Virus record (IMG/VR): IMGVR_UViG_2529293040_000001
DNA from: a virus
Taxonomy: Monodnaviria; Loebvirae; Hofneiviricota; Faserviricetes; Tubulavirales; Inoviridae
Direction: 5' to 3' (one strand)
DNA: 9,032 nt
Position 1 is the first letter of the stretch; the number at the start of each line of letters is the position of its first letter. The notes under the pieces were generated by a model, which saw nothing but the letters and a program-made list of their open reading frames with translations, was not told where the DNA came from and did not search any database. Shown piece after piece: positions 1,439 through 2,313 of this stretch. The translations under genes were made by a program, and so were the position numbers.

Positions 1439-2313
1439 TTACGCACCACTTTTGAGAAGGCGCAGGAGCGGTTTTATTCTCCGGTGAAGGCGAAACATTA
1501 ACCGACGGCGAAGACGGCGAAGAACGTAACGGCGCTGACTGCTGTGCCTGTTCTGTTTTTTCTGCGGATTAAAAAAAGGCAAAAGAAAACTAAAGAAGAG
1601 ATAAACAGAAAGCAATATAAGAAAAATAAACAAAAGAATAACCTGCGGTTTAAACAAAACCGCCCTTGCGTCAGTTCTTGTTTCCACCGCTCCCTTAACA
1701 TCATGAGAGCTGTAAAGCGGGTAAATATCTTTACTGTAACGGCAGACATAATTTGAAAGATGCGTTGCCTTTGTGGTTCTGGAACCGTCGAAAACATCAA
1801 CGCGATAACTTTTATGAGAAAGACCAATCAGTTTTTTCATTCTGAAAGTCTGCTCAATACGCTCACGAAGAAAGCGAGGCAACGTTGTCAATGCCTGATT
1901 AATAAGAACAAGGTCGCAGGTTTGCCCCGTTTTTTCATCAGCATAATGGCGATGCTCGGCAGCAAAGATACGGGCATCAGATGACAAAGCTTTATCTGAT
2001 GTAAAAAACGATGACACTCATCGAGAATAATTAAATCACCTGGCTGGCAGAGTGATTTATCCTGATTTCCCTTAACCGGATAAAAATCAGAGGACATAAC
2101 CCGCTCATTTTCAACATGAATGATTTCACCTGATGAAATATCATCACTTATCAGTTTGTTTTTATAACAATACTGAATGATTGCCTCATGATTCAGTCCG
2201 TATATATTTGAGACAATCCTTCGGCCGGATGCAACAGCCGGAATAATAACAGACTTAACCACTTCATAAGATTTGCCAGAACCCGGCACGCCAATATATG
2301 CAGTAATAGCCAT
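1439..2313 (-). pseudogene. pI/Zot-like assembly ATPase, interrupted by a frameshift (N-terminal fragment 1888-2313, C-terminal fragment 1439-2017)
   Basis: The N-terminal ORF carries Walker A ([12 protein letters not shown]) and Walker B (LIILDECH). A second ORF in another frame continues with pI-like sequence ([10 protein letters not shown]...CDLVLINQ), then a hydrophobic membrane segment (LLFIFLILLSVYLFFSFLLPFF) and a basic tail. The frame change maps to the A6 run at 2003-2008. One extra A would give a continuous reading DECHRFFTSDK. An AGAGGG Shine-Dalgarno precedes the ATG at 2313. Confidence 0.75.

Follow-up and report, generated by a model that had tools for sequence, protein, structure and literature searches.

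The zot gene of a filamentous prophage in Escherichia coli DEC2A, which is read in three different frames in the 9,032-nucleotide stretch of DNA analyzed here (the window), is probably split by homopolymer under-calls in the assembled consensus and not by any property of the DNA. Contig AIFA01000047.1 of the DEC2A draft genome (GCA_000249155.2), released in 2012, contains the entire window as an exact match. A first-pass annotation made from the sequence alone had offered three explanations for the split, namely, a homopolymer sequencing error, a real inactivating mutation, and slippage-dependent expression. The sequencing error is the best supported of the three, as six A/T runs of the prophage are contracted by one base and separate assemblies disagree at one of them. 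Long A/T runs of the prophage would thus have been reported one base too short in the draft, and the two short-called runs within zot would break a normal 352-aa pI/Zot gene into three frames. The real zot gene of DEC2A is probably intact.

Most genes of the window lie on the minus strand and, judged from the list of open reading frames (ORFs), form a typical inovirus module. The pIV-like secretin gene (1-1260, minus strand) follows zot (1257-2313, minus strand), which encodes a Zot-family assembly ATPase (pI). Upstream of zot are a pVI-like DUF2523 gene (2325-2612, minus strand) and a repeat-rich pIII-like gene (2630 to about 4245, minus strand), and small coat-like ORFs together with one ORF of the size of an ssDNA-binding protein belong to the same module. 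A Rep_trans replication gene (5325-6551) and a small regulator-like gene on the plus strand (6855-7136) are followed, after the end of the prophage, by E. coli hipA (7731-9032). A dif-like junction, ACATTATGCGCACC, is located at the hipA end of the prophage (7637-7664, with the core at about 7637-7651), and the true dif, at about 10559-10586 on contig L008, is found past the secretin end and thus outside the window. The dif-like core beside hipA and the true dif past the secretin gene therefore identify the element as a filamentous prophage integrated at dif. No integrase ORF was found between the dif-like core and the true dif, and the element accordingly has the features of a XerCD/dif prophage, that is, dif-like bounds at the chromosomal dif locus and no integrase of its own. 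Related genomes carry one to four copies of the prophage, often in tandem. The separately assembled contigs L009 and L014 to L016 end exactly at dif-like or dif cores, consistent with the GenBank draft having collapsed tandem prophage copies or a circular replicative form.

Several other features of the locus were observed. The pIII-like gene contains a long Gly-Thr/Gly-Ser repeat (about 2950-3330, minus strand), the length of which varies among strains by 18-nt units and at which short-read assemblies break. The half of the prophage carrying the replication and regulator genes (about 4980-7650) is common to a second kind of E. coli inovirus prophage (L010 and L013), the structural half of which differs and encodes a 418-aa Zot and a Phage_Coat_A pIII, which indicates that the two kinds of prophage are modular mosaics. 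The A at position 3884 occurs in the window alone, G being present in every related copy examined, even the nearly identical L015 and L016. Just past dif, outside the window (10570-16426 on L008), lies a separate element with two integrases, which adjoins hipA without an inovirus in strain MB64 and carries deletions of 6 nt and 278 nt in DEC2A.

The first-pass annotation had identified the split gene as the pI/Zot assembly ATPase of a filamentous prophage, and its Pfam profile, motifs, and gene position all agree with this identification. The repaired protein matches Pfam Zot (PF05707) with 82.7 bits (cut-off, 20.3) in one stretch covering profile positions 5 to 193 of 197. The unrepaired pieces score 48.1 bits (positions 4 to 93) and 26.1 bits (positions 119 to 193), so the frame break lies inside the ATPase domain and not at a domain boundary. 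In the translation, the Walker A motif GVPGSGKS occupies residues 8 to 15 and the Walker B motif LIILDE occupies residues 94 to 99, and the G, K, and S columns of the former and the D and E columns of the latter are invariant in a 16-sequence alignment. A hydrophobic stretch of approximately 24 residues (VILLFIFLILLSVYLFFSFLLPFF), a putative membrane segment, aligns with hydrophobic stretches in all homologues. The gene order DUF2523 (pVI-like), zot, secretin, in which the zot stop codon overlaps the secretin start codon (ATGA), is the same in every examined relative with this structural module, L010 and L013 having the other module. The normal gene product is predicted to be an inner-membrane assembly ATPase with an N-terminal P-loop domain and one membrane segment, and its periplasmic C-terminus would work with the adjacent secretin. 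The best protein match among deposited phages, from an uncultured human-gut inovirus, shares 39.5% identity, and no relative of this Zot was detectable by sequence in the Protein Data Bank.

The first frameshift site in zot (2003-2008, minus strand) is a coding-strand T6 (plus-strand A6), compared with T7 in relatives. Intact relatives read CGT TTT TTT (Arg-Phe-Phe) just after Walker B, and the coding strand of the window reads GAT GAG TGT CAT CGT TTT TTA CAT at the switch. The T run is explained by a conserved Phe-Phe (HRFF) in an AT-rich gene. The apparent N-terminal fragment of 141 aa (1888-2313, minus strand), deposited in GenBank as EHU30107.1 of E. coli DEC2A, contains Walker A and Walker B followed by a 38-residue out-of-frame tail. 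A 192-aa ORF (1439-2017, minus strand), which contains the hydrophobic segment, carries Zot on in the -1 frame. The first-pass annotation had correctly placed both Walker motifs in the frame of the 141-aa ORF and the frame switch at the AAAAAA run, and the overlap between the two ORFs, which it gave as about 130 nt, is indeed 130 nt. Its assignment of the rest of the protein to 1439-2017 holds for the hydrophobic segment but not for the last 100 codons, which lie in a third frame; the final 40 residues of the 192-aa ORF are themselves out of frame because of a second one-base deletion. Similarly, the single extra base that it had proposed does give LDECHRFFTSDK, exactly as encoded by intact relatives, but it leaves the second deletion in place.

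This second frameshift site, missed by the first-pass annotation, is located at 1556-1561 (minus strand), where the coding strand has A6 (plus-strand T6) compared with A7 in relatives. The true C-terminal 100 codons of Zot, corresponding to the predicted periplasmic part, are therefore found at 1260-1559 (minus strand) in the third frame. The gene is present in 27 complete E. coli genomes, at identities of 98.5% to 99.7%, and was aligned with the copies of 4 of these; its length is 1,057 nt in the window versus 1,059 nt (352 aa) in the intact relatives. Repair at the first site only yields a 291-aa product with a wrong C-terminal tail, whereas with both sites repaired the reading frame runs for 352 aa and terminates at the ATGA shared with the secretin gene. 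The resulting protein matches P0122, an intact entry in other E. coli assemblies, at every residue.

When the whole window was compared with the near-identical prophage copies of two strains, AST240 and E700025, a pattern emerged across the prophage that changes the reading of the zot split. The prophage part of the window has six one-base deletions, all in A/T runs with a reference length of 6 or more. Relative to the same two copies, there are no one-base insertions and no other short indels except an 18-nt repeat-unit difference in the pIII-like gene. Contractions affect none of 45 5-mers, 1 of 13 6-mers, 3 of 9 7-mers, and both 8-mers by reference run length; with the first zot site set aside, two of the eight other 7-mers are contracted. 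None of the four contractions outside zot had been remarked in the first-pass annotation. At the start of the pIII-like gene (4233-4237, minus strand), plus-strand A5 replaces the A6 of relatives and removes the ATG start codon (MSFLKNIS...), so that the ORF seems to begin at TTG; contigs L014 to L016 have A6 at this site. Plus-strand A6 at 4851-4856 (A7 in relatives) changes the C-terminus of a small minus-strand ORF (4841-4975), and A7 at 6804-6810 (A8 in relatives) is intergenic, between a 65-aa ORF and the regulator gene. The last, A7 at 7050-7056 (A8 in relatives), shifts the end of the plus-strand regulator-like gene, which encodes 93 aa instead of 70 aa. With an 82-nt query spanning the regulator site, the best match is one gap off in 27 of 28 RefSeq complete genomes, including finished strain E24377A, and the gap corresponds to A8 in the copies read base by base; the remaining genome matches at 100% (A7).

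The first-pass annotation had proposed comparing the homopolymer length across related prophages, and this comparison gave T7 at the first zot site throughout 56 copies, comprising 45 of 45 copies in 27 RefSeq complete E. coli genomes, 4 of 4 metagenome contigs, and 7 of 7 IMG/VR viral contigs, with T6 in none of them. In all 27 genomes, the best copy covers zot over its full, intact length. Of the 120 protein clusters listed, 118 cover 95% to 100% of the query, and these are single ORFs of 341 to 374 aa. Diverged homologues at 88%, 57%, 58%, and 50% identity have T7, T7, T6 (CGG TTT TTT), and T8, respectively, always in frame. The T6 allele is present on about 8 contigs, compared with several hundred carrying the intact gene, and the truncated 141-aa product occurs as six distinct sequences on at least three single-nucleotide polymorphism (SNP) backgrounds (including P0135 and P0137 to P0140). 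One of these products, the cluster representative P0138, was traced to GCA_029997215.1 / SRR11848711 (L031/L032), in which T6 is the sole contraction among four assessable sites. The occurrence of T6 on several backgrounds, one of them otherwise clean, indicates that real T7-to-T6 mutations probably occur. The prophage on L031 adjoins a DinG-type helicase gene (DEAD_2/Helicase_C_2) and a Glycos_trans_3N gene, not hipA.

The AIFA record belongs to the DECA collection, which was announced in 2012 and was reportedly sequenced by pyrosequencing; a literature search gave no useful information on the platform used for DEC2A. Run SRR067926 was assembled separately, and contig L009 of that assembly matches the window over 3,031 nt with a single gap as the only difference. 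This gap falls at the second zot site, which is A7 in L009; the first site stays T6. The disagreement between A7 in L009 and A6 in the window indicates that at least one of the six contractions is an assembly error. The exact 141-aa product was found on two contigs only, those of the DEC2A record and of SRR067926, and SRR067926 is probably DEC2A's own read set; the agreement of the two assemblies on T6 is therefore not independent evidence. The 93-aa form of the regulator is absent from all SRR067926 contigs and present in seven other contigs.

Three contigs of other early runs are separated from the window by 1 substitution (L016), 2 substitutions (L015), and 29 substitutions (L014), and they carry differing, non-matching subsets of the -1 contractions, including a private one at 4542. 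These scattered contractions look like noise. In L011, an assembly evidently full of errors, 6.8 kb contain 26 short indels (25 deletions), mostly in homopolymers; four of the six DEC2A short alleles recur there, which indicates that these alleles do arise as artefacts. Another GenBank entry, EHU28640.1, is the intact P0121 protein and may be from DEC2A, which would mean a second, intact zot copy in the strain.

The DNA on both sides of the prophage served as a control. No one-base indels were found in 11.4 kb of DEC2A chromosome beside the prophage compared with E2348/69 or in the 5.9-kb element on the other side compared with strain MB64. A general homopolymer error in the DEC2A chromosome is thus not apparent in these flanks, although they contain few long runs: the two together have three 7-mers and no 8-mers, which makes this a test of little power. 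In a Fisher test, the contrast with the prophage gives P = 0.03 when runs of at least 6 are compared with those of the 11.4-kb flank only and P = 0.20 when the runs are at least 7 long, and this contrast is confounded with the difference in run lengths. A 909-bp deletion in a sensor diguanylate cyclase gene relative to E2348/69 was observed in the DEC2A chromosome outside the window (L022, position 5514), flanked by GTGTTTGCCC direct repeats.

The contractions share several properties with the homopolymer under-calling of pyrosequencing or long reads, in that only -1 changes occur, only A/T runs are affected, longer runs are hit at a steeply higher rate, two assemblies of apparently one strain disagree, and the same alleles recur in the error-laden L011. 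Unlike in typical under-calling, the DEC2A flank is without such errors, though few long runs are present there. When the contraction rate of the other 7-mers is set beside the rarity of T6 among contigs, a miscall is favored roughly ten to one, a weighing tempered by the consideration that the six contractions might not all be errors. From this we infer that the T6 call itself is a miscall, with the T6 of the SRR067926 assembly, the flanks free of one-base indels, and the recurrence of T6 elsewhere counting against it. The same three observations speak for a real slipped-strand mutation, in which T7 of DEC2A has lost one base and zot is a pseudogene: T6 appears in both the GenBank and SRR067926 assemblies, the flanking chromosome has no homopolymer errors, and T6 is found on at least three SNP backgrounds elsewhere, one of them with no other homopolymer problem. 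Under such a mutation, this prophage copy would depend on another copy or a helper for pI and could otherwise neither assemble nor export virions. The recurrence on these backgrounds lends some substance to the inactivating mutation suggested in the first-pass annotation, whereas T7 in all 56 good copies tells against it, as do the five other -1 contractions in the same 7.6 kb, among which at least one assembly error has been demonstrated. In addition, the closest prophages are only 1 to 2 substitutions per 4.4 kb but 2 to 3 homopolymer lengths away, and indels outnumbering substitutions are not expected from ordinary mutation, given the mutation spectra of E. coli. A real mutation in DEC2A is therefore considered unlikely, albeit a serious alternative to the under-call.

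Explanations that give the run a function are far less probable. The T7 tract might be a recurrent slipped-strand hotspot that turns assembly off in a minority of lysogens, in which -1 slippage on U_UUU_UUA yields a trickle of pI and hence a mostly silent prophage with occasional export, but this combination is very unlikely. It is highly doubtful that T7 is a phase-variable contingency tract, an on/off switch for phage assembly that flips often enough to be useful within populations and was caught off in DEC2A. The same contraction is found on several haplotypes and TTT TTT is kept at the DNA level in diverged homologues, as such a switch would have it, but Phe-Phe in an AT-rich phage gene would by itself lead one to expect TTT TTT. 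Moreover, the off allele is confined to the few contigs noted above and to none of the 45 complete-genome copies, some off alleles come from error-prone assemblies, no +1 (T8) variants occur among close relatives, and seven bases are short for a contingency tract. Programmed recoding, by which a -1 ribosomal slip or RNA polymerase slippage would give full-length pI in addition to a 141-aa ATPase-only product, is the least probable of the readings. In the T6 allele, U_UUU_UUA is an X_XXY_YYZ slippery heptamer in the zero frame of the 141-aa ORF, and the shift needed is -1, the direction expected of a slip on it, as at the programmed -1 sites of E. coli dnaX (A_AAA_AAG) and HIV-1 gag-pol (U_UUU_UUA). 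Unlike those sites, however, the heptamer is created by the deletion itself, intact relatives being single ORFs with T7, and no conserved two-frame layout was found among the 45 complete-genome copies, the listed clusters, and the diverged homologues. There is also no spaced stimulatory structure: the sole downstream hairpin abuts the heptamer without a spacer, where 5 to 9 nt would be expected, and its folding is unexceptional (z = -1.25, with 24 of 200 shuffles folding at least as well). The slippage-dependent expression raised in the first-pass annotation thus finds little room, as homologues from 99% down to 40% identity are single ORFs, those of 50% to 88% identity have T6, T7, or T8 but are always in frame, the frame is broken midway through the Zot ATPase domain, and even a slip at the first site would leave a product cut short by the second frameshift.

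Should the split be an artefact, the prophage of DEC2A is an ordinary inovirus integrated at dif with its assembly gene intact, and the split has little biological weight. If T6 is real in DEC2A, this prophage copy would be assembly-defective, a common and unsurprising fate of prophages. For annotation, the lesson is that in old draft or long-read-only assemblies, frameshifts in long homopolymers should first be checked against neighboring homopolymers and close relatives, and such a check is due before a pseudogene or a recoding site is called.

The DEC2A gene product resembles the gene I protein (pI, with the internal product pXI) of the Ff phages M13, f1, and fd and the Zot of Vibrio phage CTXphi (PF05707) in having a Zot domain with both Walker motifs and a single hydrophobic segment after the ATPase domain. 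The position of the gene is also similar, directly upstream of and overlapping a pIV-like secretin gene and after a DUF2523 pVI-like gene. The DEC2A gene product differs from these proteins in its low identity to deposited phages and in its frame, which is broken twice, most likely by assembly error. Among filamentous prophages, CTXphi, CUS-1 of E. coli O18:K1, and Ypfphi of Yersinia pestis are integrated at dif by the host XerCD. The present element, which has no close DNA relative among deposited phages and no match to them beyond 117 nt at 76%, resembles this class in lying between a dif-like junction beside hipA and the true dif, in containing no integrase ORF, and in the tandem copies that its relatives often carry.
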